Source of the DNA: Deltaproteobacteria bacterium | GTDB taxonomy: Bacteria > Desulfobacterota > Dissulfuribacteria > Dissulfuribacterales > QOAL01 | Length of the DNA stretch: 64,000 nucleotides | Assembly: GCA_026995935.1 (NCBI GenBank) | Contig: JALWNK010000023.1 | Span: 73,399 to 137,398, forward strand | Reading direction: 5' to 3' | Shown: positions 1 through 59,090 of the stretch, in pieces | How positions within the stretch are numbered: the stretch's first letter is position 1 | Layout: each line of letters begins with the position of its first letter | Program-made: the position numbers and the translations under genes | Notes under the pieces: model-generated | Told to the model about the DNA's origin: nothing | Database searches by the model: none | Seen by the model: only the letters and a program-made list of their open reading frames with translations

Positions 1-989
1 CGGATTTTTTCCGGCGTAATGTTACCTCCGCAGATCCTGGCCGCCTTTTCAGGGGAGTAGTCCTTGACAAAGGATTTGTACTTGGCGAAATCAACCTGTT
101 TCTTTTCCTTGCCCATGCGAAAAACAGCGTAGTTTTTAAGAAAATCTTCGTCGTAAAGATTTTCTTCCACGATCACATAGGCCATTGCGTTTAGAAGGGC
201 CAGATCTGTACCTGGGTTGAACTGTAGGTGAAGATCCGCAATCCTTGAGGTTGGAGAGACCCTCGGATCGGCATTAATGACCTTTACCGTGTCCTTGTTA
301 TCAAGCTTCCTACGCATAATGCGCCTGAACAGGACAGGGTGTGCCTCTGCGGTATTGCTTCCAATGATAAAAAAGCAGCTGGCCCTTTCGAAGTTGGTAT
401 AGCTGCCAATGGGCTCATCAGCTCCAAAGGACGTGATGTAGCCGCCAACTGCACTTGCCATGCAAAGCCTTGGGTTGCCCTCAACGTTGTTGGTTTTAAG
501 CCCCCCTCTCATTACCTTCTGGAATATGTAAGTCTCCTCTGTCAATGCCTGTCCCGAACCGTAGTATGCAACAGAGTCATTACCGTACTGTTTTACTGCC
601 TTTGCAAACTCCTTTGCCGCTATGTCAAGGGCCTCGTCCCAGGAAATTTCCTTGAAGGGCTGATCTTTTCTGGCCCTGTAAAGGGGTTTTTTAAGCCTTT
701 CAGGGTGGTTGTTGCCCATGAGTTTGTAAAAGAGCATGCCTTTCATGCAAAGATAGCCCATGTTGGTGCGTGACTTGGTAATCCCGCGAAGGGCAACGGC
801 CTTTCCATTTTTTACACCAAGCTCAAGCCTGCATCCAGAGCCGCACAGTCGGCACGTGCCCTTGTGCCAGCTGTCAGCATCTGATGCATGTGCCTCCTGC
901 TCATTTGAAAATGGGAGGTCTATACCAACATATGATGCCGCTGTGAGTGCGGCTGTTCTCTTAATGAATTCTCTTCTTGAAAGCCCCAT
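1..989 (-). CDS. napA: Periplasmic molybdopterin (bis-MGD) oxidoreductase catalytic subunit, NapA-like; only the N-terminal 329 codons are present and the gene runs off the left edge
   Basis: The ORF track omits it because there is no stop in the window. My reverse-strand translation from the ATG at 987..989 reads MGLSRREFIKRTAALTAAS (twin-arginine signal), then HKGTCRLCGSGCRLELGV...NMGYLCMKG (4-Cys FeS motif), NNVEGNPRLCMASAVGG and GSNTAEAHPVLF. These resemble NapA as I remember it, including the Cys Mo-ligand region. There are no in-frame stops to position 1, and a GGAGGG SD lies 6 nt upstream. Confidence 0.72.
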   Translation of the reverse strand, partial: MGLSRREFIKRTAALTAASYVGIDLPFSNEQEAHASDADSWHKGTCRLCGSGCRLELGVKNGKAVALRGITKSRTNMGYLCMKGMLFYKLMGNNHPERLKKPLYRARKDQPFKEISWDEALDIAAKEFAKAVKQYGNDSVAYYGSGQALTEETYIFQKVMRGGLKTNNVEGNPRLCMASAVGGYITSFGADEPIGSYTNFERASCFFIIGSNTAEAHPVLFRRIMRRKLDNKDTVKVINADPRVSPTSRIADLHLQFNPGTDLALLNAMAYVIVEENLYDEDFLKNYAVFRMGKEKKQVDFAKYKSFVKDYSPEKAARICGGNITPEKI

Positions 990-1003
990 ATTTTTCCCTC
1001 CTG

Positions 1004-1384
1004 TTACTTGTGGATAAAAAAGTGATGGGCTGGATGGCAGTCCCAACATTTCTTGTCAGAGGGCCTCTTTAGATACTGTGCATTATGACAGGCTGCACAG
1101 TTTGTCTCATCTGGTGAGGTCTTCAGGTCTTCGTAGGTCCCGTGACACTGAAAGCATTTCACATTGGCGATGCCGTGGACAGAGTCGTACCATTCCTTGT
1201 AGACCTCCGGGGTGGCATCCTTGTGACACTGGGCACAAGGAGTGAGTTTTTCTTGTGCAGATAGTTCAGGATGGACCCCCATTTTTGTTGAGGTAGAAGC
1301 CTTTTTAGATGTCCCTGCACTACAGGCAGAAGCCACGGCAACGGTAATTATAAGCAGGCAAAGCTTTAATATTTTACCTTTCAC
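1004..1384 (-). CDS. Tetrahaem c-type cytochrome lipoprotein (NapM-like small cytochrome)
   Basis: 126 aa with a signal peptide ending in the lipobox-like VASAC. It has four CxxCH motifs (CAQCH, CFQCH, CAACH, CWDCH). The start is GTG, with an AGGAGG SD 6 nt upstream. It lies 14 nt upstream of the NapA-like gene. Confidence 0.75.
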   Translation of the reverse strand: MKGKILKLCLLIITVAVASACSAGTSKKASTSTKMGVHPELSAQEKLTPCAQCHKDATPEVYKEWYDSVHGIANVKCFQCHGTYEDLKTSPDETNCAACHNAQYLKRPSDKKCWDCHPAHHFFIHK

Positions 1385-1406
1385 TTTTCACCTCCTAAAG
1401 AGAAAA

Positions 1407-1423
1407 GGCCGGTTAAACCGGCC
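1407..1423 (-). terminator. Intra-locus hairpin GGCCGGT-TTA-ACCGGCC followed by TTTTCTCTTT on the minus strand (terminator/attenuator-like)
   Basis: A perfect 7-bp GC-rich stem and a T-rich tail sit directly after the barrel gene stop (1432), about 10 nt before the SD of the next gene. Confidence 0.4.
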
Positions 1424-1431
1424 CTTTTCAG

Positions 1432-2871
1432 TTAAAAAGTAAACCTGAACTCGGCGTAGAAGAAGTCCAGGTCATCATCCTTGGTGAAGACCTGCTCTAC
1501 CACGTCGTCACCCCAGACGTGGCTGTAATAGAGGTCAAGCCCCATGCTTACCCCGTAAGCCTTGTAGATGTCCTTTATGAAAAAAGAGATATCCCACATG
1601 GTTCCAAGGCTGTCGTCATCAAAGCCACCAGCCGGCCTTATGGGTTTGTATCCGAATATATCAGCCCTTGTAGCACCAGAACCCTGGTACCAGGCATCAT
1701 CCTCTTCAGTCAGCCATAGTCTTGTTACATCCGTACGAACAAGAACATTGGGAAGAGGTTTAACCATGAGCTGACCAAAGCAGTATGTGGTATTCATGAG
1801 GTTAAACCATGGGGTCATGGCGTAGATACGAAGCGTAGGCATCATCATGAAGAAGGTGTCACGGTCATTGTCTGTTGGGTCGTCATCGCCAGAGCCTTGG
1901 AAATAGCCACCACGTACCCATGGCTGCCAGACTATATCCTCGAACTTGTATCCTCCTTCAAGGGCAACAGCGTAGGCGCTTTGATCATCTTTCCCCCATA
2001 CTCCTGTCTGGTAGTCACCCCAGACCAGAAAGTCAAAACTACCGGGGCCAACCTTTGGTGTTACGTATAAAATATGGCCGCCAAAGTTGTTGATTTCAGG
2101 ATCCTGGTTGGGAATACCCCTGTCGTCGTTGTAGTAGTAATAGAAGAGCTGGGCATCAAGGCCGGGAATGACGGAATCCTTCAGGGTAAAAACAGCAGTC
2201 AGAAAATCAATATCGTGGATCTTCTTTCCGTGCACCTCGTTTTCCATATAGTCCAGGTAGAATCCACCCTGGGTAGGCTCAAAGCCTGCCACGGTAAAGT
2301 TGTAGGCCTTGTCGTTCCAGGCGACCTGAAAACCGTCAAAGGAGCGGCCAACACGTGACCATTCGAATCCACCGATGAGCCTCTGGGATATTCTCAGTTT
2401 CCTGAGCCAGGCTAGACGCTTATTCTTTGGCTTAGTTCCATATTCGAGGCCGCTGTTGTACTTAAAACGGCCTATGGTAGCGCTCAGGTTTTCGCATCCA
2501 GGCATACGGCCACGGAGCCACAACTGGTCAATTCCAACCTTGCCCACGTCCCTTGCTCCATTGTTCTGGCCATAATAAAGGGCGCCTGTACCGTAGGATG
2601 CGTGTCTTGGAAGACCAAAAAACTGGGTCCAGTTTATCTCGCTGTATGCGTCGATGTTACTGGAGTTGAATCCAAATCCAAGCCTCATCTTGCTTGAGAC
2701 GAAGTCGTACTGGTCATCAATGGTGCTTGGCTTTTCAAAGGTTGACCAGTTTTCGTATCTTATTTCCTCTTTGAACTTGATATAGGCGTTTTTGTTGATC
2801 TTGTACGCATAGGCGTTGGCAGCCACAAGAAAGATGAGTGCCAACAAAGTCAAAAAAATAGGTCTTTTCAT
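1432..2871 (-). CDS. Outer-membrane beta-barrel protein (porin-like, family unassigned)
   Basis: 479 aa with a signal peptide (..LVAANAYA). Composition is Gly/Tyr/Trp/Asp-rich with an alternating pattern. The C-terminus AEFRFTF ends in Phe (OMP beta-signal). A GGAGGG SD is present. Confidence 0.65.
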   Translation of the reverse strand: MKRPIFLTLLALIFLVAANAYAYKINKNAYIKFKEEIRYENWSTFEKPSTIDDQYDFVSSKMRLGFGFNSSNIDAYSEINWTQFFGLPRHASYGTGALYYGQNNGARDVGKVGIDQLWLRGRMPGCENLSATIGRFKYNSGLEYGTKPKNKRLAWLRKLRISQRLIGGFEWSRVGRSFDGFQVAWNDKAYNFTVAGFEPTQGGFYLDYMENEVHGKKIHDIDFLTAVFTLKDSVIPGLDAQLFYYYYNDDRGIPNQDPEINNFGGHILYVTPKVGPGSFDFLVWGDYQTGVWGKDDQSAYAVALEGGYKFEDIVWQPWVRGGYFQGSGDDDPTDNDRDTFFMMMPTLRIYAMTPWFNLMNTTYCFGQLMVKPLPNVLVRTDVTRLWLTEEDDAWYQGSGATRADIFGYKPIRPAGGFDDDSLGTMWDISFFIKDIYKAYGVSMGLDLYYSHVWGDDVVEQVFTKDDDLDFFYAEFRFTF

Positions 2872-2915
2872 TTCCTTAACCCTCCTTTTAAAACCATTTT
2901 TTAAAAATAGAACAA

Positions 2916-2942
2916 GGCTGTGGTTCCCTATAGACCACAGCC
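2916..2942 (-). terminator. Hairpin GGCTGTGGT-N9-ACCACAGCC with a T-rich tail (TTGTTCTATTTTT) on the minus strand, downstream of the HAO-family gene
   Basis: A 9-bp perfect inverted repeat read directly from the sequence. It lies in the 103-nt gap between the hao stop (2975) and the barrel start (2871). Confidence 0.4.
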
Positions 2943-2974
2943 CGTTTGTTTTTGCTCCATCTGGAGCTCACCTA

Positions 2975-4339
2975 TTAAAGAGGACCCGTGCTCATTACAG
3001 TGCTTGGTTCCTCAATTTTGTTGTGTTTCATGCGATAGTTGTATATCTGCTGCAGATCTTTGTACATCTGGAATATCTGGAAGAATCCATGCCAGTGGGC
3101 GTAGTCAGGTCCGTTCATGGCAGCACCCTGACGGGCACGCCTTCCTGCATGGTGCCACAGGTAGTACATGATTTCCTGGAAGCCGTCAGCCCAAGGATCC
3201 TTTCCAAGAAGCCCCTTGGCAGCAAGCTCCTTCTTCATCTTAACTGCTCCGTCCCAGTAGAAGTTGTAAAGGGCAACGGCATCATCCAGGGTGTTGATCT
3301 CCTTTTGCATCTGTGTTGGACCGTGGCAGTTTGCGCACACCTTCCTCATGAGCTTGGCACCCTTTTCTCCGTTACCACGCTCGCCTGAACGGATCACGCT
3401 CTTTGGATGAACAAGATCCCATTTGAGTCTTTCATTTATATTGTGCGTAGTAGTCAGCTCGCCAATGCCGCTCATGTGGCAGGTTGCACAGGTTGGTGCT
3501 GTGTAGTCGCCAGGCTGCCATGCGTCAGGGGCGCTGTCCCATTCCCAGGTTTCTCCCTGGGTGGCAAATATCTGGCCATGTTTGCTCTCCATGTATATCT
3601 CAATATCAGGGTGGTCAGGGCCAAGGTGGCAGCTTGCACATGCCTCCGGCTTCCTGGCCTCCTCAACTGAGAACTGGTGCCTTGTGTGGCAGACTGTACA
3701 TGTTCCAATGGAACCATCAGGATATCTTGTTCCCACACCGCCTGGCCAGGTATTCTTGATGGGTTTGTGGTCAGGGCCAAGTTCAACCTGTCCGCCATGG
3801 CACATCTGGCAGCCTGCTGCACGTGAGGCCATATTGCTTGAGTTCGACCTGCTGTTTCCAATAAATTCTGCGCCTTCCAGGTGGTACATAAGATTCAAGG
3901 TCTTTTTCTTCTCAACCACTGGGAAGCTTGCAAGTTTTGCATGGCCGCTTTTCAAAAACTGCTCAACCTCTTGTGGGTGGCAGCGGGAACAGGTTTTGGA
4001 TGAGACCATGGGGGAGATATAGATGTTTGAACCCTTGATTCCTGAACACTGGCTTGCCATGGGTGAGCTCTTCTCCACCACGTGGCAGTCAAAACAGGAT
4101 ACAGAGGCATGGGCCATTTTCCCCTTTTTCCAGGATTCAACAATGCCTGGTGTCTTTTTAGAATGACATTCCACGCACTTTGCCGCTTCGGGTGACATTC
4201 CACGCTTTATAACCAGCTCCTTGTGGAGCTTGGGGGTGGAGTTTCCGGTGCTTTGCTCTGCAAATGCCACACTGCAAACCATGCCTAAAAACAGACTGGC
4301 CATTATCAGTGTGCCGGTTTTACCAACTAACTGTTTCAT
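2975..4339 (-). CDS. hao: Octahaem cytochrome c of the hydroxylamine oxidoreductase (HAO) family
   Basis: It has eight CxxCH motifs: [59 protein letters not shown]. Their contexts closely resemble HAO as I remember it. A signal peptide is present. I prefer the start at MKQLVGK (4339), which has an AGGAGGG SD, over the ORF-track start at 4375. Confidence 0.85.
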
Positions 4340-4376
4340 GTTAACCCTCCTTTTATTTTTTATTTTGGAATACAAA

Positions 4377-4928
4377 TTACTTGGCCTTCTTGGCTATTTC
4401 CCTGAATTCAGCCACAAGATCCCCGTGTCCTACCTCGTGGTGACAGTCCAGACAGGTCCGTTTGGTCTGGCCCACCAGATAGGTCTTGTGGGCCGTATAT
4501 GCCTTCAGTGGGATTCCAGGAGCAACCAGCTCTTTGTGGCACTCCTTGCAACCCGAATCGTAGGCGGCATGAACGTAAGGCCCTCTGTTTTTCCACAGGG
4601 TCAGCCAGTCTGTCTTTTTTCCCATCCAGTGGGCCTTGATATCGTGGAGTCCTGCCAGCGTCTTGGTCTTGAGATAATTGCCAAGACTGTCGTGCGGCAG
4701 GTGACAGTCAACACACCTTGCCCTTATGACACCCTTTGCATCGGTCCCGTGTTTGCCTGCTGCCCATGTCCTGTAGAAGGGATGCATCTCGTGGCACGAA
4801 TTGCAAAATTCAACCGTACTGGTAGATTGAACCTGTTTGGCTGCAAAAAAGGCTATAACAAGGGCCACAAGAAAGGCGATTATGCACGCTACCAAAACCG
4901 CCCCCCCATTATCTGTGATGATCCTCAT
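4377..4928 (-). CDS. Membrane-anchored tetrahaem quinol dehydrogenase, NapC/NirT/NrfH family
   Basis: One N-terminal TM helix ([21 protein letters not shown]) and four CxxCH motifs, including CNSCHEM (CxxCHxM), CVDCH, CKECH and CLDCHH. I prefer the start at MRIITDNGG (4928, GGAGGG SD). The ORF-track extension to 5036 covers AT-rich promoter-like DNA. Confidence 0.8.
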
Positions 4929-4997: not shown

Positions 4998-5035
4998 TGT
5001 TACTGTGTTGTTAAATATGTTACTAAATTGTAACA
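4998..5035. promoter_or_regulatory. Cluster of TGTTA motifs: direct copies at 4998, 5009 and 5018, plus the palindrome TGTTAC-TAAATT-GTAACA (5018..5035)
   Basis: Read directly from the 197-bp divergent region between the napC-like gene and the cupin/kinase/regulator genes. A possible minus-strand -10 element, TAAAAT, lies at 4981..4986. Confidence 0.35.
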
Positions 5036-5125
5036 AATTTAACTTGCAGGGGTTTAAAAACCATCGGTACCAGGGAATAAGTTCATGTCTTTTTTGTTAA
5101 AGTGTTCATAATTTGGAGGTTAAGT

Positions 5126-5473
5126 ATGGCAATATTCTTTAGTTCGGAGGATTTGAATACAAAATTTCAGCCCCATCCCAAATTCAATGGTGTATCCATT
5201 GCAAAGATGGCTGGTGAGAGTGATGGTCTTAATCTGGGAGTGTCTCTGCTTGAAATTTCAGAGGGCGTGGAAATCCCTGTCCATATACACCATGAAAGCG
5301 TGGATTCCATTTACTGCTTGTATGGCCAGGGGCAAGTCTTTTACTCTGGCCAGTGGCAACCATTTAAAAAGGGAGATTACTGCCTAGTTCCCCCAGGGCA
5401 GGAGCATGGGGTCAGAAACGGAGACACGGGAAAAATGAGGCTATTCATAGTACACAGCCCACCTCTTTTCTGA
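5126..5473 (+). CDS. Cupin-domain protein
   Basis: The motif HIHHESVDSIYCLYGQG...PPGQEHGVRN is a two-His-cluster cupin signature. GGAGG lies 6 nt upstream of the ATG at 5126. Confidence 0.6.
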   Translation: MAIFFSSEDLNTKFQPHPKFNGVSIAKMAGESDGLNLGVSLLEISEGVEIPVHIHHESVDSIYCLYGQGQVFYSGQWQPFKKGDYCLVPPGQEHGVRNGDTGKMRLFIVHSPPLF

Positions 5474-5479
5474 GACCTC

Positions 5480-7027
5480 ATGTTCCAAAGGCTGGGGCAC
5501 AAGATATTATTCTGGATTATTGTTATCTTTGGCCTTTTCGGTACGATTTTTCTTTTATGGCAAGGCCACCAATATAAAAAGGCCGGGATTTCTCAGCTTC
5601 TTCAGCAGGCAAGGGGAATCTATCACTATGTGGTCCTGTCCAGACAGCTTATTTCCAGCTGGCACGGTGTCTATGTAAAGAAAGGGGATGAGTTCATAAG
5701 GATGACGCCCTCGGCATTCACCGGCCAGTTGGCATCCTTTTCTGGTACGAAGGCCCCCTTCACCTTGAAGGTTGCAGTTTTAAACAGCAAAAACCCTGAC
5801 CACGTTCCTGACGATTTCGAAAAATACGCCATTATGGAGATGACCAGAGGCCCCAAAAGGGAACTCTGGACATTAGAGTCTGATAAAGCGTTGTATCGTT
5901 TTCGCTACGCTGGACCTTTACTCTTTGAAGACGAGTGCAAGAGTTGTCATAGCAAGAGTCCCAGGGTGAAGATAATGGGCTGCATTTCCATTGGGGTCAA
6001 TGCAAACAATTTTTTTGAGGTTCTGGAAAGGGACCTGATTCACTATGTCATTTACATGTTTGGAGGCATTCTGATCATACTGACCCTTTTGTGGTTCATG
6101 CTTCGGAATTCCGTTTTAAGGCCCTTAAGAGAGCTCAGTGGTGCGGCAGAAGAGGTGAGAAGGGGAAACTTCAACGTGAGGGTAGACCTGGATGAGAGCC
6201 TTGAATGGCAAAGCGTTGGAGAAAATTTTAATAATATGGTTGAAGCCCTTGCCAAGAGGCAAACCGCCCTTCAGGAAGAGGCCGACAGTGCCATTGAACG
6301 TTTGAAGGCCGCCTACGAAGAACTTAAAAAGACAGAGAAGTATAAGTCGGATTTTTTCACCAATATAACCCACGATCTCAAGACGCCAATAACAGCCATA
6401 AAGGGTGCCATTACCATTCTTTCCAGAAAATGCTCTAATGAGCATGATCCTTATCTGGACATACTCCAAAGAAATGTAGAAAAGCTCTCTTCCATGGTTC
6501 AGGATCTCCTTGACTGTTCCAGGCTGGAAAGCGGTGAACTTGCCCTGCACAAGGAAGAGTACGATCTGGCTGAGGTCCTGGAGGATGCAATACTTTCTGC
6601 AATGCCCCTTGCCTGGAAGAAAAAGATCAAGCTTGACTATCATGTTCCTGAGGAACCATGTCTTGCCAGGATGGACAGGAAACGCATGGAACAGGTGATA
6701 ATAAACCTCCTTTCAAATGCCATAAAATTTTCACCTGAGGCAGATACAGTCCAGATCAGACTGATCAGGGACAATGACTTCTGGAAGATCATGATAGAAG
6801 ACAACGGCCCTGGTATTCCCGTTGAAGACAGGGACAAGATATTCAACAAATTCTTTCAGAGATCCGACGCCAAGGCGGACACTGGAATGGGCCTTGGCCT
6901 GGCCATAGCCAAGGGCATCATAGAGGCACATGGCGGCCAGATAGGGGTGTGTGACAGGTTGGAGGGAAGACGCGGAAGCTGTTTCTACTTTCTAATTCCG
7001 TGTCTGAAAACAGACAAGAGGGACTAA
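5480..7027 (+). CDS. Sensor histidine kinase with a periplasmic Tll0287-like (DUF3365) haem-c domain, HAMP, HisKA and HATPase_c
   Basis: Two TM helices flank a domain containing NSKNPDHVPDDFE...YRFRYAGPLLFEDECKSCH (CxxCH at 5936..5950). The H-box is FFTNITHDLKTP, with N/G boxes LLSNAIKFSP, EDNGPGIP and GMGLGLAIAK. Confidence 0.8.
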   Translation: MFQRLGHKILFWIIVIFGLFGTIFLLWQGHQYKKAGISQLLQQARGIYHYVVLSRQLISSWHGVYVKKGDEFIRMTPSAFTGQLASFSGTKAPFTLKVAVLNSKNPDHVPDDFEKYAIMEMTRGPKRELWTLESDKALYRFRYAGPLLFEDECKSCHSKSPRVKIMGCISIGVNANNFFEVLERDLIHYVIYMFGGILIILTLLWFMLRNSVLRPLRELSGAAEEVRRGNFNVRVDLDESLEWQSVGENFNNMVEALAKRQTALQEEADSAIERLKAAYEELKKTEKYKSDFFTNITHDLKTPITAIKGAITILSRKCSNEHDPYLDILQRNVEKLSSMVQDLLDCSRLESGELALHKEEYDLAEVLEDAILSAMPLAWKKKIKLDYHVPEEPCLARMDRKRMEQVIINLLSNAIKFSPEADTVQIRLIRDNDFWKIMIEDNGPGIPVEDRDKIFNKFFQRSDAKADTGMGLGLAIAKGIIEAHGGQIGVCDRLEGRRGSCFYFLIPCLKTDKRD

Positions 7028-7031
7028 ACGC

Positions 7032-7730
7032 ATGTTCAAGGCCAGGATACTGGTTGTTGAGGATGACAGGGACATAAGGACCGTGCTTATGGATCAGCTG
7101 CGTCTGGACGGATTTGAGACCGTTGGTGCGTCAACTGGCCAGGAGGTGCTTGAGAACTTCAGTTCAATTTCCCCTGATCTCATAATTTTGGATCTCAAGC
7201 TTCCTGACATTGACGGCCTGGTGGTATGTCAGGAGGTGAGAAAAAGATCGGACATTCCCATCATCATAGTGAGTGCCAGGGATTCCCTGCCTGATAAGAT
7301 CAGGGGGCTTGAGGTGGGGGCAGATGACTATGTCACAAAGCCCTTTGAATACCTGGAACTCGAGGCAAGGATTAGGGCGTGCCTGAGACGGCGCCAGGCC
7401 TCCTCTTCAGCTACAGAACCCATTGACCTTGGAAAACTCAAGATATACAGGCAAAAGAGGATGATAGAGGTGAACGGAAGGAGTGTAAAGCTTACGAAAA
7501 AGGAGTTTGAGCTCTTAAGCCTGTTCCTTGAGAACAAGGGCAAGGTTCTTAGCAGGGAGTATCTCAGCAGCCACCTTTGGCACAAAAAGGAGGTCTATCC
7601 CTGGTCTCGGGCCCTGGATGTGCACATCAGAAGACTCAGAAAGAAAATAGAGCCTGATCCGGCAAATCCAAAATACATACTCACCCACGCCGGAGTTGGT
7701 TACAGGTTCTCAACTGGAAAAGTGGACTAA
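7032..7730 (+). CDS. OmpR/PhoB-family response regulator
   Basis: The receiver domain has VVEDD and the acceptor DLIILDLKLPDIDG. The C-terminus is a winged-helix domain (LTKKEFELL...HAGVGYRF). Confidence 0.85.
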   Translation: MFKARILVVEDDRDIRTVLMDQLRLDGFETVGASTGQEVLENFSSISPDLIILDLKLPDIDGLVVCQEVRKRSDIPIIIVSARDSLPDKIRGLEVGADDYVTKPFEYLELEARIRACLRRRQASSSATEPIDLGKLKIYRQKRMIEVNGRSVKLTKKEFELLSLFLENKGKVLSREYLSSHLWHKKEVYPWSRALDVHIRRLRKKIEPDPANPKYILTHAGVGYRFSTGKVD

Positions 7731-7757: not shown

Positions 7758-10700
7758 TCAGTTCAAGGTGTCTTGCTGCTGATATTTTGCCCTGAGCCCT
7801 GGATATCCAAGTATCTGCATCACCTCTTGGGCAACATCTTCATGAAGGCTTGCACTGAATTCATCTGGAAGGGCAAGGTGGACTATGCCCTTGTTGTTGA
7901 TGCGTATGTCCAGGGTGACAGGTAGCTGCCCCGGAGTCCTTTTTAGAAGCTCCTTTAGCCTCTTTACCATTTCCGGCCTGACCCTGTCTTCCCGGATGTC
8001 TATTACAATGCCACAGGTCTTTTTGGCACAGACGTCTTCTAGAAGTTCCACCTTTTCCGCTATTATCTTGCAGGATGCCGACTCCTTTTCCTCTCCTTCC
8101 TTTTTAAGAAGGCCCTCTACGAATATGGGCTTTTCCGAATCTATTATCTCCTGAAACCTCGAGTAGGCCTCTGGAAAGCAAATCACCTCAACGGAGCCTG
8201 AAAGGTCTTCCAGGACAAAAAAGGCCATCTTGGTGCCCTTCTTTGTAAGCTTGTCCTTTTTCATCCTGACAACCCCTGCAAGGCCAAGGCGAGTACCCTC
8301 GGAAATGGAAGGAAGTGCGTCTGCGGTAACGGTAGGAAGCCTTAGGATGTCCTGGCGGAAGGCATCTAGCGGATGTCCGCTTATGTAAAAGCCAAGGGCC
8401 TCCTTTTCAAGGGAAAGCCTGTACATCTCATCCCACTCATCAACCTCTGGGATATTAAAGGAAGATGCCCCTTCAACAGGTGCCTGGGCGCAATCAAACA
8501 GGGATTTTTGCCCAAGACTCCTCTCCTTCTGCTTTTTATGGCCAAACTCCAGGGCTCTGTCCAGGCTTTCAAACAGCTGAGCCCTTTTAAGGCCAAAGCA
8601 GTCAAGGGCCCCTGATTTTATAAGGCCCTCAAGTACGCGTTTATTTACCTTTTTAAGGTCAACCCGTGAAACAAAGTCACCAAAGTCCTCAAAGGGGCCG
8701 TTTTCTTCCCTTTCCTTGATTATCACCTTGATGGCGCTTGACCCCACGTTTTTTACCGCTGCAAGGCCAAAACGAATCTTATCCCCTTCTATGGTGAAAT
8801 CCTCGCCGCTCTTGTTTATGTCTGGAGGAAGAACAGTTATGCTGCTTGAACGGCACTCTCCCAGGAATTTTACTACCCCGTCGGTATTTCCAAGCTCATT
8901 TGAAAGAAGGGAAGTCATGAAGGGTATGCGGTAGTGTGCCTTTAACCAAGCAGTTTGGTAAGAAATTAGGGCATAAGCGGCTGAGTGACTCTTGTTAAAG
9001 CCGTAGCCGGCAAACTTTGCCATGAGGTCAAATATGGTTTCTGCCTTCTTCTTGTCTATGTCCTTTTTGAGGGCACCCTCCATGAATCTTTCCTTCTGGG
9101 CCTCCATGACCTCAGGAATCTTTTTACCCATGGCGCGTCTGAGAAGGTCACCTTCTCCAAGGCTGTAGCCGGCAAGCTCCTGGGCAATTTTCATGACCTG
9201 CTCCTGGTACACTATGACCCCGTAGGTCTCCTTTAAAATGGGTTCAAGCTGAGGAAGCAGGTATTTGACCTCTACCTGGCCGTGCTTTCTCTTTACAAAG
9301 TCTGAAACCATGCCGCTTTCCAAAGGGCCTGGCCTGTAGAGGGCGACAAGGGCAATGAGATCCGTAAAGGTTGTGGGCTTAAGCTGCCTGATTAGGTTTT
9401 TCATCCCCGAGCTTTCAAGCTGGAAGACCCCGGTGGTGTCCCCCTCCTGCAGGAGCTTGAAGGTCTTTTCGTCATCCAGAGAAATGGTGGAAAGGTCTAT
9501 ATCCTTGCCGTAGTGCTCCTTTATGAGCCTTATTGTGGTATCGATTACCGTAAGGGTCTTTAGACCGAGAAAGTCGAACTTGATGAGCCCAACCTTCTCC
9601 ACGTCCTTCATGTCAAACTGGGTTACTGTCTCTCCCTCCTGACCCTTGGTAAGGGGCAGGTATTCCACCATGGGCTTGTCCGAGATGACTACGCCTGCGG
9701 CATGGGTGGATGAATGGCGGGGAAGCCCTTCTAAGGCTCTTGCAATGGTCAGAAGGCGTGCCACCTCCTTGTTGTTTTCAGAAAGCTCCTTGAGCTTGGG
9801 CTCAAGCCTGATGGCCTCTTCAAGGCTGATGTTGAGCTTGTCTGGAACAAGCTTGGCAATCCTGTCCACCTCCTGATAGCTCATGCCAAGTCCCCTTCCA
9901 ACATCCCTTATGACAGCCTTTGCCTTCATCTGGCCAAAGGTGATTATCTGGGCCACAAAGTCCTCGCCACCGTACTTTTCTGTAACGTACCTTATGACCT
10001 CATCCCTTTTGGCCATGCAGAAATCAACGTCTATGTCAGGAAGCGAGACCCTTTCAACATTGAGGAAGCGCTCAAAGAAGAGGCCGTAACGGACAGGGTC
10101 TATTTCCGTAATTCCCATGGAATAGGCAACAAGAGAACCTGCTGCAGAGCCCCGGCCAGGGCCAACGGGAATGCCATGCCTCTTGGCCCAGTTGATGAAA
10201 TCAGCAACGATGAGAAAGTAGGAGGCAAATCCCTTATCCTTGATGATCTCAAGCTCTTCCTCAAGGCGTTCCTGGTACCTTTTGCACTCATCTTCAGAAA
10301 GGCCAAGCTGCCTCTTTCTCCTTTCAAATCCTTTCCTTGCCTGCCTTTCAAACACCTCCTCGTAGGTAAGCCCCTCATCGATCTTGAAAAAGGGAAAGTG
10401 GTGTTTGCCCGTCTCGATTTCAACGTTGCACCTAGAGACAATCTCCTGGGTGTTTGATATGGCCTCCTCATGCCAGGAAAAGCGCGAAGCCATCTCCTCT
10501 GGAGGGGCAAAGTAGAGGCTGTCCGTGGAAAATCTCATCCTTTTTTTGTCGTTTACCGTCTTTCCTGTCTGGATGCAAAGAAGCACGTCATGGGCGTCTG
10601 CATCCTCCCTGTTGAGGTAGTGACAGTCGTTTGTGGCAACAACCGGTATGCCTAGTTTTTTCGAAAGGTCAACAAGGGCCTCATTCACCTCGTTCTGCTC

Positions 10701-14883: not shown

Positions 14884-15264
14884 ATGGGTAACGAGAACAC
14901 GCCGGTCGTACTTTTGGTGGACGACAAGCCTGAAGGCAGGGAAGTTTTTTCTCAGATAGCCCAGGACTTTCCCTTTGAACTCATTGTGGCAGAAGATGGG
15001 CAGGAGGGGTTTGACTTGGCCCGGGAGCAGGAGCCCGATTTAATTATAATAAGGAAGAATGTCCCTGTCTTGAATGCCGAGTCGGTAAGCGTTCTGCTAA
15101 AGCAGTCTGCAGCCACAGACAAGATTCCCATACTGGTCATCTGCCCTGATTTTTCCCCTGAGGAACAAGAAAAGTTACAGGATGCCGGTTGTAACGACTG
15201 CATAAAGGACTTGCAGGAAGTTGAAATCGTGGTTTCAAAGCTAAAGGAGTGGCTTGCCCTATGA
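14884..15264 (+). CDS. Stand-alone receiver-domain protein lacking the phospho-acceptor Asp
   Basis: 126 aa. The VLLVDD acidic pair is present, but the acceptor position reads [11 protein letters not shown], with Arg57 (codon 15052..15054) where Asp is expected. The stop overlaps the hemB ATG (ATGA). Confidence 0.6.
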
Positions 15265-58842: not shown

Positions 58843-59090
58843 TTTTTACACCTTTAACAATATCGTTTATCCTTATGGAGATAGGCGACTCAAAGACAAA
58901 GTTGATTATTAAGACTTTTTTTATCCGCGTGAATCCTGTCTGTCAAGTAAATTTTGAATATTTTCTCACTTGAAATTTTTTCGCATGTATATTCTATCAC
59001 ATATTCGTGTTTTGGGAATTGTTTGATAATGGTTTAAAATCGGACTGTCTGATATCGTTCATTTAAAAAAGCACAAAAAAAGGAGGAGAC

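Follow-up and report, generated by a model that had tools for sequence, protein, structure and literature searches.

Can one gene string carry a bacterium from nitrate through nitrite to ammonium, and from which parts was such a string assembled? This question is raised by the left end of contig stretch JALWNK010000023.1 of a Deltaproteobacteria bacterium (64,000 nt, referred to below as the window), where genes of periplasmic nitrate reduction (nap) and a gene belonging to the hydroxylamine oxidoreductase (HAO) family (hao) follow one another on the same strand. The reading we find rather likely is that dissimilatory nitrate reduction to ammonium (DNRA) is the function of the locus, a compact island composed of two modules which lie apart in relatives and are joined here. 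The open reading frames (ORFs) of the left end lie on the minus strand and encode, from position 4928 down to position 1, an NrfH-like protein, an octahaem cytochrome c (Hao), an outer-membrane barrel, a NapM-like cytochrome and the N-terminus of NapA, whose gene leaves the window at position 1. The five same-strand genes described from the sequence alone were all recovered; the gaps between them, given then as 1 to 103 nt, measure 37, 103, 47 and 14 nt along the string, hao being counted from the ATG at 4339. The identical Hao protein was found on 13 public contigs, with the same 454-residue start called on all of them. These contigs carry, beyond the window, the remainder of napA, a secreted protein of 220 residues, napD, napG (with a Tat signal), napH and a CxxCxxCC-domain protein, so that napD, napG and napH, looked for to the left of the window, are all three located downstream of napA. 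Upstream of the string, and divergent from it, are genes for a small cupin, a Tll0287-like histidine kinase and an OmpR-family response regulator. No other ORF with at least two CxxCH motifs is present within the window, and scans of the window for Rfam families and for tRNA were both empty.

The conservation of this arrangement was examined in public genomes. The order nrfH-like, hao, barrel, napM, napA, napD, napG, napH is kept in 17 GTDB species-representative genomes, which are metagenome-assembled genomes (MAGs) labelled Deltaproteobacteria, Thermodesulfobacteriota, Desulfobacterales or 'Thermodesulfatator'; the nrfH-like gene stands ahead of hao in these genomes wherever upstream sequence exists. 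Across the 17 genomes, identity goes down to 75% in Hao, 53% in the barrel and 50% in NapM, and the same string pattern occurs on five metagenome contigs. The string is thus a conserved feature of sulfur bacteria from hydrothermal settings which have not been cultured. Because the gene order recurs in 17 species-representative genomes, the arrangement is not due to chance. In a wider group, nap, nrfH-hao and a Tll0287-type two-component system are neighbours in five arrangements, i.e. that of the present lineage and those of loci L032, L033, L119 and L023. In a sixth, that of L118, the place upstream of barrel-napMADGH is taken by an HAO-family module unrelated to the present one (28% identity). 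The cultured Thermosulfuriphilus ammonigenes (L032) has homologues of NapA (80% identity), Hao (72%), the NrfH-like protein (56%) and the barrel (57%), together with homologues of NapM, NapD, NapG, NapH and the two-component system. According to the title of its species description, as cited in PMC11896075, this organism respires nitrate to ammonium. Nap and hao are physically joined at this locus, and they are probably joined in their regulation as well.

Since the tetrahaem gene pairs with hao irrespective of nap, the barrel goes with nap, and nap has its own NapGH, we read the locus as two modules, nrfH-like/hao and barrel-napMA-X-DGH, which appear to be fused head to tail. The first gene of the string (4377..4928, minus strand) is predicted to encode an NrfH-type membrane-anchored tetrahaem quinol dehydrogenase which would act as the partner of Hao (the CycB or 'HaoC' role). 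The protein has 183 residues, one N-terminal transmembrane helix and four CxxCH motifs (CNSCH, CVDCH, CKECH and CLDCH), in agreement with the earlier description of this ORF, CNSCHEM included, and it matches Pfam Cytochrom_NNT with E=7.7e-27. Aligned to the NrfH of Desulfovibrio vulgaris (2J7A_C), it shows CNSCHEM (CxxCHxM, haem 1) as well as K and D at the positions of Lys82 and Asp89; CxxCHxM, Lys82 and Asp89 mark haem 1 and the quinol site in NrfH. Among the NCBIfam models of the protein, that of NrfH scores best (78 bits), followed by those of TorC and NapC (43-49 bits), all these scores being below cut-off: the NapC/NirT models TIGR02161 and NF007906 give 49 and 43 bits for cut-offs of 311 and 349, respectively. 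The downstream partner of the gene is an octahaem HAO-family protein, not NrfA.

Gene neighbourhoods argue in the same direction. The nearest homologues of the NrfH-like protein (44-57% identity) are each encoded immediately upstream of hao. In T. ammonigenes the nrfH-hao pair is present with nap on the other strand, beyond the kinase and the regulator; in Thermodesulfatator atlanticus (L033) the pair is found with nap as a separate unit; in the MAG of locus L119 the order kinase-regulator-nrfH-hao is divergent from napMAGH; and a Desulfohalobiaceae genome (L034) has the pair with no nap nearby. More distant Hao genes (64-72% identity, L021-L025) also have an NrfH-like gene upstream. Altogether the NrfH-like gene is directly upstream of hao in every relative examined for which upstream sequence is available, with the exception of L027. 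Because the tetrahaem gene adjoins hao whether or not nap is nearby, the conserved unit appears to be nrfH-like plus hao, and the supposed 'NapC' is better described as a predicted Hao partner than as a nap gene. By analogy, the pair would follow the same logic as the HaoA-CycB 'reverse HURM' put forward for Nautilia.

The second gene, haoA (2975..4339, minus strand), encodes a predicted soluble periplasmic octahaem cytochrome c of the HAO family. The protein has 454 residues, a Sec signal and eight CxxCH motifs, and matches Pfam Multi-haem_cyto PF13447 with E=4e-33 and 115 bits (cut-off 21.9); motif count and Pfam match bear out the HAO-like character first attributed to this ORF. Among solved structures, the Ignicoccus octahaem protein 4QO5 is nearest in sequence, followed by the HAO of Nitrosomonas europaea and the Kuenenia enzymes. 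A signature has been described for the epsilon-Hao enzymes, namely a Trp in place of the cross-linking Tyr, preceded by a Met eight residues earlier (Haase et al. 2017, as reported in PMC8940962). The window Hao has M408 and W416, spaced as in this signature and invariant in 15 homologues, down to a 37%-identical protein from Binatia; no Tyr is invariant within the C-terminal 90 residues of the 15 sequences. The HMMER alignments end at residue 406 of N. europaea HAO and do not reach its Tyr467, whether phmmer, the 15-sequence profile or the C-terminal 104 residues alone were run against PDB sequences (otherwise unrelated proteins were matched), so that the Met/Trp assignment relies on the published signature and not on a residue-level alignment to Tyr467. 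On this basis the protein is tentatively assigned to the reductive epsilon-Hao type. It is probably a nitrite reductase, and we propose it as a candidate nitrite/hydroxylamine reductase: the Tyr-less HAOs characterised to date are reductases, and four epsilonproteobacterial epsilon-Hao enzymes reduce nitrite and hydroxylamine in vitro (PMC8042395). The subfamily is a large and well-conserved one, with 5635 proteins at E<1e-10 from Desulfobacterota and other phyla, of which many are 65-75% identical; no named Campylobacterota member was present among the 50%-identity representatives and cluster names of the search. In many public records, close homologues go under the names 'beta-ketoacyl-ACP synthase', 'nitrate reductase' or 'ammonia-forming cytochrome c nitrite reductase subunit c552', which look like annotation errors that have spread.

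The last gene of the string (1..989, minus strand) is the 5' part of napA, encoding a predicted periplasmic nitrate reductase of the monomeric Desulfovibrio type. The window holds its first 329 codons, and the full protein on the identical contigs has 802 residues. Its N-terminus contains the Tat motif SRREFIK and the 4-Cys iron-sulfur motif CRLCGSGC...C, and the part encoded in the window matches Pfam Molybdop_Fe4S4 and Molybdopterin. The segment GNPRLCMASAVGGY is identical between the window NapA and the NapA of D. desulfuricans, which upholds the NapA-like assignment with Tat signal, iron-sulfur motif and molybdenum-ligand region that had been proposed; its Cys aligns with Cys140 of 2NAP, the molybdenum ligand of the D. 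desulfuricans enzyme. Compared with solved structures, the full-length protein scores 797 bits against D. desulfuricans NapA over the whole chain, about 512 against other NapA, 359 against formate dehydrogenase (Fdh) and 104 against thiosulfate reductase. NCBIfam models rank NapA first (670.8 bits) and Fdh-alpha at 502. The possibility of a non-nitrate molybdoenzyme, raised from the start, was therefore tried with these figures: on the bit scores (797 vs 359 for Fdh) and the alignment of the molybdenum-ligand Cys, a formate dehydrogenase or a sulfur- or arsenic-type molybdoenzyme was rejected. By sequence, the molybdoenzyme is thus assigned as a true NapA of the Desulfovibrio type.

Between the barrel gene and napA lies a napM-like gene (1004..1384, minus strand), which ends 14 nt before napA and encodes a predicted small periplasmic tetrahaem cytochrome c of 126 residues, with a signal peptide, four CxxCH motifs and a match to Pfam class III cytochrome c. 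Length and motif count agree with what had been stated for this ORF; its description as a lipoprotein remains unproven, the lipobox (VASAC) being non-canonical. No curated NapM model is found among the NCBIfam or Pfam matches of the protein, and in all relatives a napM-like gene (44-85% identity) lies directly upstream of napA. Downstream of napA, NapD is matched by Pfam, and NapG and NapH are the best NCBIfam models of their proteins; napB is absent from the unit. The 220-residue secreted protein between napA and napD (15828..16487 of L001, outside the window) is matched by neither Pfam nor NCBIfam and does not resemble the comparably placed proteins of L033 and L118. It is poorly conserved (25-35% between species, often undetectable), and a napA-napD gap of 0.7-1.2 kb exists in all related loci. 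In the closest relatives the protein with the CxxCxxCC domain (putative Zn/Fe-chelating; 18263..18922 of L001) follows directly after napH and may be a further accessory gene.

The remaining gene of the string (1432..2871, minus strand) encodes a protein of 479 residues with a signal peptide, assigned as an outer-membrane beta-barrel of the AlgE (Alginate_exp) family: Pfam PF13372 is matched with E=1e-21 and 77 bits (cut-off 25.2). The AlphaFold2 model has a mean predicted local distance difference test (pLDDT) of 90.8 and a predicted template modelling score (pTM) of 0.86. Foldseek retrieves AlgE first (E 3.5e-20), then OprD/Occ channels, with TM-scores of about 0.64-0.74; phmmer gave no PDB match. 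Barrel homologues of at least 48% identity were always in nap operons in the loci seen. The order barrel-napM-napA-napD-napG-napH is that of T. ammonigenes, and the same barrel-nap order occurs in Thermosulfurimonas sp. F29 (L118) and, without hao upstream, in metagenome contigs L043 and L044, so the barrel appears to belong to the nap unit. In Thermodesulfatator (L033), a gene between napA and napD encodes an Alginate_exp protein so divergent that BLASTP gives no significant full-length match with the window barrel. No alginate or polysaccharide genes are present at the locus, where the neighbours of the barrel gene are hao and nap. Eight arginines are invariant in the barrel family. Among the immediate neighbours of the distant barrel homologues, the commonest Pfam family is the SLAC1/TehA anion channel (11/96), which suggests that distant barrels and SLAC1/TehA form a pair of outer-membrane and inner-membrane anion channels. 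Taken together, the nap context, the SLAC1/TehA neighbours, the eight invariant arginines and the AlgE/OprD fold point to an anion channel, and the nap-linked barrel may be considered, by inference, a candidate entry port for nitrate or nitrite.

The barrel could instead be a general porin or a polysaccharide exporter with no specific role for nitrogen oxides. The nearest solved structures are indeed the AlgE exporter and the OprD/Occ channels, most of the distant homologues are away from nitrogen genes, and small anions normally cross general porins. Against this stand the lack of alginate or polysaccharide genes nearby, the restriction of the subfamily of at least 48% identity to nap operons in the loci seen, the presence in Thermodesulfatator of another, unrelated protein of this Pfam family encoded between napA and napD, the pairing of distant members with SLAC1/TehA anion channels, and the eight arginines, which would suit an anion pore. 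We consider a general porin or exporter doubtful on this balance.

Some further observations concern the barrel family as a whole. A gene of 381 codons lies just downstream of the barrel homologue in L057, L058, L064, L065, L067, L071, L072, L087, L098 and L102. A Binatia genome (L035, 3853..8479) has in a row a Rieske protein, a cytochrome b, a 533-residue HAO-family protein and an Alginate_exp barrel, which links HAO-family enzymes to the barrel family a second time and independently. In soil-metagenome loci L112 and L113, barrel homologues (32%) are found within about 5 kb of a HAO-like gene (31-34%) and a NapA/NasA-like molybdoenzyme gene (36%). These are the only distant barrel homologues (at most 42% identity) with Hao or NapA neighbours, the association in L112 and L113 being a loose one; therefore no family-wide link to nitrogen is claimed, and the theme retained for the family is that of anion channels.

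The region between the string and the divergent genes was analyzed for regulatory signals. It contains an operator-like array (4998..5043) of four GTWACA/TTAACA hexamers, including two copies of GTWACANNTTTAAC. The hexamers are spaced by 9-11 bp and located at positions -106, -95, -86 and -75 ahead of the nrfH-like gene, a layout conserved across the lineage, and a TAAAAT box resembling a -10 element lies 10 nt downstream of the last one. We interpret array and box as the layout of a PhoB/OmpR-activated promoter. The core GTWACANNTTTAAC has two exact matches in the window, both in the array, and three matches with at most one mismatch, compared to 0.35 expected; the one-mismatch copy TTTACACCTTTAAC (58845..58858) is far from the cluster and probably due to chance. 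In T. ammonigenes the motif is found upstream of nrfH-hao and, separately, upstream of barrel-nap (9843-9856 and 20475-20488 of L032); in L043 it is upstream of barrel-nap (copies at 6852-6865 and 15133-15146); and it also stands ahead of nrfH-hao in the Thermodesulfatator and Desulfohalobiaceae genomes. It is absent from 93 of the 119 loci examined, most of which are loci of distant barrels. A sigma-70 promoter scan of the intergenic regions yielded nothing useful.

The divergent unit, on the plus strand, starts with a gene for a small cupin-domain protein (5102..5473, Pfam Cupin_2; the probable start at 5126 gives 115 residues), which is conserved beside the kinase only within this lineage (52-68% identity). 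The sensor histidine kinase follows (5480..7027; Pfam Tll0287-like, HAMP, HisKA and HATPase_c), with a periplasmic Tll0287-like c-haem domain (CKSCH) between two transmembrane helices. A homologous kinase adjoins nap and/or nrfH-hao in L032, L033, L118 and L119, and more weakly in L023. The kinase is a possible sensor of nitrate, nitrite, nitric oxide (NO) or redox state. The last gene encodes a response regulator of the OmpR/PhoB family (7032..7730; Pfam Response_reg and Trans_reg_C) which co-travels with the kinase across loci and is our candidate for binding the repeat array. To our knowledge there is no study of a Tll0287-type kinase/OmpR regulator system.

Two junctions of the string contain hairpins, which bears on the question of whether it forms one unit or several. 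Between the barrel gene and napM (1407..1423), a GC-rich hairpin, GGCCGG-TTTAA-CCGGCC, is followed on the coding strand by TTTTCTCTTT and has a terminator-like appearance. Between hao and the barrel gene (2916..2942), a stem-loop of about 10 bp, GGCTGTGGT..ACCACAGCC, precedes a T-rich tract. Hairpins are present at both junctions in 18 of the 18 loci examined, with free energies of -15 to -31 kcal/mol (-18 to -31 at the hao-barrel junction), and their stem sequences differ between species; that hairpins are kept despite changed stems suggests selection on structure. Hairpin and ribosome-binding site occupy the 47-nt spacer between the barrel gene and napM, which therefore leaves little room for a promoter. 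In our own reading of these sequences, nrfH-hao and barrel-nap would share one regulator in the wider group, and in the present lineage the nap unit would have lost its own operator and be read from the nrfH promoter. The hairpins are then probably partial terminators or stabilisers which set relative transcript levels.

The functional scheme that we favour takes as its starting point the observed gene identities, fold, synteny and motif distribution. Its first module, the NrfH-like protein with Hao, would be a quinol:nitrite reductase of the 'reverse-HURM' or epsilon-Hao kind: the NrfH-type tetrahaem protein would oxidise menaquinol and pass electrons to the soluble periplasmic Hao which, probably without the cross-linking Tyr, would reduce nitrite (and hydroxylamine or NO) to ammonium. 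In the second module, the AlgE-like barrel would admit nitrate or nitrite to the periplasm, NapGH would oxidise quinol, and NapM would relay electrons to the monomeric, Tat-exported NapA for the reduction of nitrate to nitrite, NapD being responsible for the maturation of NapA. The haem-sensor kinase and the OmpR-type regulator would switch on the whole string through the single repeat array ahead of the nrfH-like gene, and the hairpins after hao and after the barrel gene would tune relative transcript levels. The suggestion made at the outset, that one locus could serve nitrate, nitrite and ammonium in succession, is thus plausible and remains the best-supported reading. We go further only tentatively, and with clearly less confidence, in viewing a barrel dedicated to nitrate or nitrite, the Tll0287 kinase, the OmpR regulator and a GTWACA-N2-TTTAAC operator as making the locus a self-contained DNRA island of a kind not recognised before, in which the Desulfobacterota Hao would be the physiological ammonifying nitrite reductase.

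Several points weigh against the scheme. The scores of key proteins are below the cut-offs of curated models: 78 bits against 134.2 (TIGR03153) for the NrfH-like protein, 670.8 bits against the equivalog cut-off of 904 (NF010055) for NapA, and values below the NCBIfam equivalog cut-offs for NapD, NapG and NapH. For NapA, this may be due to a model dominated by heterodimeric enzymes of the NapAB type. The string could also be transcribed in separate pieces, given the terminator-like hairpins at two junctions. For nrfA, otr or nirS/K, the check was confined to the 64-kb window, in which no further multihaem ORF is present. Activities, substrates and product, the routes of the electrons, the specificity of the channel, binding by the regulator and the structure of the transcripts are all deduced here from sequence and context. 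The Hao subfamily is, moreover, widespread in sulfate reducers not known for nitrate respiration. In the Desulfohalobiaceae genome (L034) the nrfH-hao pair stands amid genes for rubrerythrin, desulfoferrodoxin, a flavodiiron protein, cytochrome bd and Hcp, a setting of oxidative and nitrosative stress genes which makes detoxification a real alternative. Finally, the HAOr of Kuenenia, also without the Tyr, makes NO from nitrite (PMC8042395), and the product of the window Hao can therefore not be read from its sequence.

The last three points feed an explanation in which the NrfH-like/Hao pair mainly clears away toxic nitrite, NO or hydroxylamine arising from Nap activity, or makes NO or hydroxylamine to be finished by an enzyme such as Hcp, and is not an energy-conserving ammonifier. 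It is also in keeping with the Nautilia model, which has free hydroxylamine and Hcp (PMC3701875), and with the presence of hcp in the Deferribacter cluster (PMC6896113). No hcp is present in the window cluster. The tight and repeated linkage to nap and the common operator motif agree with a respiratory pathway, respiratory NrfHA has the same arrangement with a quinol-linked NrfH partner, and epsilon-Hao gives ammonium from nitrite in vitro (PMC8042395). Detoxification, or the making of NO or hydroxylamine, as the main role is, in our view, unlikely.

The sequence-only reading had placed hao and the barrel gene as an insertion within an ancestral napC-napM-napA operon, with a single NapC/NrfH protein feeding both NapM/NapA and Hao. 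The order on the strand is superficially napC..napM-napA, electron transfer from the NrfH-like protein to NapM is compatible with the data, and in Nautilia cycB/napC lies near nap with hao elsewhere, a shared role having been discussed (PMC3701875). The distribution of the genes does not follow this history. The tetrahaem homologues adjoin hao even where nap is on the opposite strand, separated or absent, and the barrel gene is part of the nap unit in L032, L043, L044 and L118, preceding napM without hao upstream in the first three. The NrfH hallmarks and the preference for the NrfH model (78 bits vs 43-49 for NapC) also speak for a Hao partner, and with NapGH present a single protein feeding both enzymes is not needed. 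An insertion into a nap operon thus appears quite improbable, and the joining of two modules is the reading we retain. That Hao acts on sulfur compounds (sulfite, polysulfide or tetrathionate), its adjacency to nap being incidental, is an idea which must also be counted against our scheme, as sulfur substrates were proposed for clade I HAO of vent Desulfobacterota (Speth et al. 2022, PMC9213671), Slobodkina et al. left the option open for their four-gene locus (PMC5276818) and the organisms live on sulfur, but it is very improbable in view of the Met/Trp pair of the protein, spaced as in epsilon-Hao, the linkage to nap in 17 species-representative genomes and several independent arrangements, and the identical operator motif preceding nap and hao units.

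The comparison with known systems shows what is shared and what differs. The sequence-only reading knew of no characterised locus of this architecture; same-strand nap-hao clusters have in fact been published (PMC5276818, PMC6896113, PMC5317091). The closest is an 11-gene nap cluster of T. dismutans and Dissulfuribacter thermophilus (Slobodkina et al. 2017, PMC5276818), also described in T. marina and strain F29 (Allioux et al. 2022, PMC9676032), for which Slobodkina et al. suggested that nitrate and nitrite reduction share the cluster. Locus L118 (F29) corresponds to it, with cytochrome c, FeS protein, NrfD, a HAO-family protein of 543 residues, one gene, barrel, napMADGH, regulator and kinase. 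It has in common with the window a quinol-dehydrogenase module, an HAO-family cytochrome, an Alginate_exp barrel and napMADGH on one strand, together with a Tll0287-type kinase and an OmpR regulator; identities between F29 and the window are 78% for NapA, 48% for the barrel, 42% for the kinase and 54% for the regulator. It differs in its electron input, a set of three genes (cytochrome c, FeS protein and NrfD) compared to a single NrfH-type gene here, and in its HAO-family protein, which is only 28% identical to the short epsilon-Hao-type enzyme of the window. As the NapA proteins are 78% identical, the spot ahead of barrel-nap has thus received HAO-family modules of two different kinds. The papers on the 11-gene cluster call the barrel a periplasmic protein of unknown function (PMC5276818, PMC9676032).

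An explicit 'nap-hao gene cluster' has been reported in Deferribacter autotrophicus and D. desulfuricans (PMC6896113), and nap and hao are in the same locus in Caldithrix abyssi, in a paper which also points to Epsilonproteobacteria and Denitrovibrio (PMC5317091). There, as here, napMADGH adjoins the gene for an octahaem Hao, for which the role of nitrite reductase in ammonifiers lacking nrfA has been proposed; their hao is however downstream of nap and has other partners (in Deferribacter a small membrane protein, Hcp and a decahaem protein, in Caldithrix Rieske/cytochrome b), and neither an NrfH-type gene nor an outer-membrane barrel is reported. Nautilia profundicola, in which haoA and cycB/napC are nitrate-induced (Hanson et al. 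2013, PMC3701875), and Campylobacter have in their reverse-HURM a Tyr-less octahaem HaoA and a tetrahaem quinol dehydrogenase of the NapC/NrfH/cM552 family alongside Nap. The window Hao has a Met and a Trp at the spacing (Met-x7-Trp) described for these epsilon-Hao enzymes, the comparison being made by description and not by sequence. In contrast to the present locus, haoA and cycB are unlinked in Nautilia, with cycB near nap (PMC3701875).

The NrfHA complex of D. vulgaris (2J7A) resembles the first module by its tetrahaem partner, with equivalents of CxxCHxM, Lys82 and Asp89, and by the order of small-subunit gene first and catalytic gene second. Its catalytic subunit is the pentahaem NrfA with CxxCK, whereas here it would be an octahaem HAO-family protein with CxxCH at every haem. 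The D. desulfuricans napCMADGH operon provides the closest solved NapA (2NAP), and NapM, NapD, NapG and NapH are likewise present here and NapB absent; the window locus differs in that no true NapC is demonstrable, an extra barrel gene precedes napM and the 220-residue gene lies between napA and napD. Finally, the barrel shares with Pseudomonas AlgE and OprD/Occ the predicted fold and Pfam Alginate_exp, at a sequence identity of only about 10-12%, and in a context of nitrate respiration instead of polysaccharide export. Literature searches for napCMADGH with hydroxylamine oxidoreductase, or for T. ammonigenes with Hao and Nap, found nothing, and no mention of the nrfH-hao pair near nap in L032 and L033 was found in the portions of the literature consulted. 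As far as we found, what is new is that the string includes an NrfH-type partner, that an AlgE-like channel is linked to nap and that a haem-sensor two-component system travels with the set; previously undescribed, within the same limits, are the nap-linked AlgE-like barrel as a functional candidate, the Tll0287-type sensor system and the shared operator motif.

What the very common HAO-family proteins of Desulfobacterota do is unsettled; Speth et al. 2022 emphasise that these proteins have no known function (PMC9213671). The present locus and its several independently shuffled versions are strong contextual evidence that at least the epsilon-Hao-like subfamily works with Nap. Such a cooperation of Nap and Hao would be the missing step in nitrate ammonifiers without nrfA at hydrothermal vents. 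The analysis supplies concrete parts for its study, i.e. a cultured relative (T. ammonigenes), a candidate operator, a candidate haem sensor and a candidate outer-membrane channel for nitrate or nitrite, for which we know of few precedents. The outline of DNRA would be left unchanged; what may change is the view of who performs it, and with which parts.

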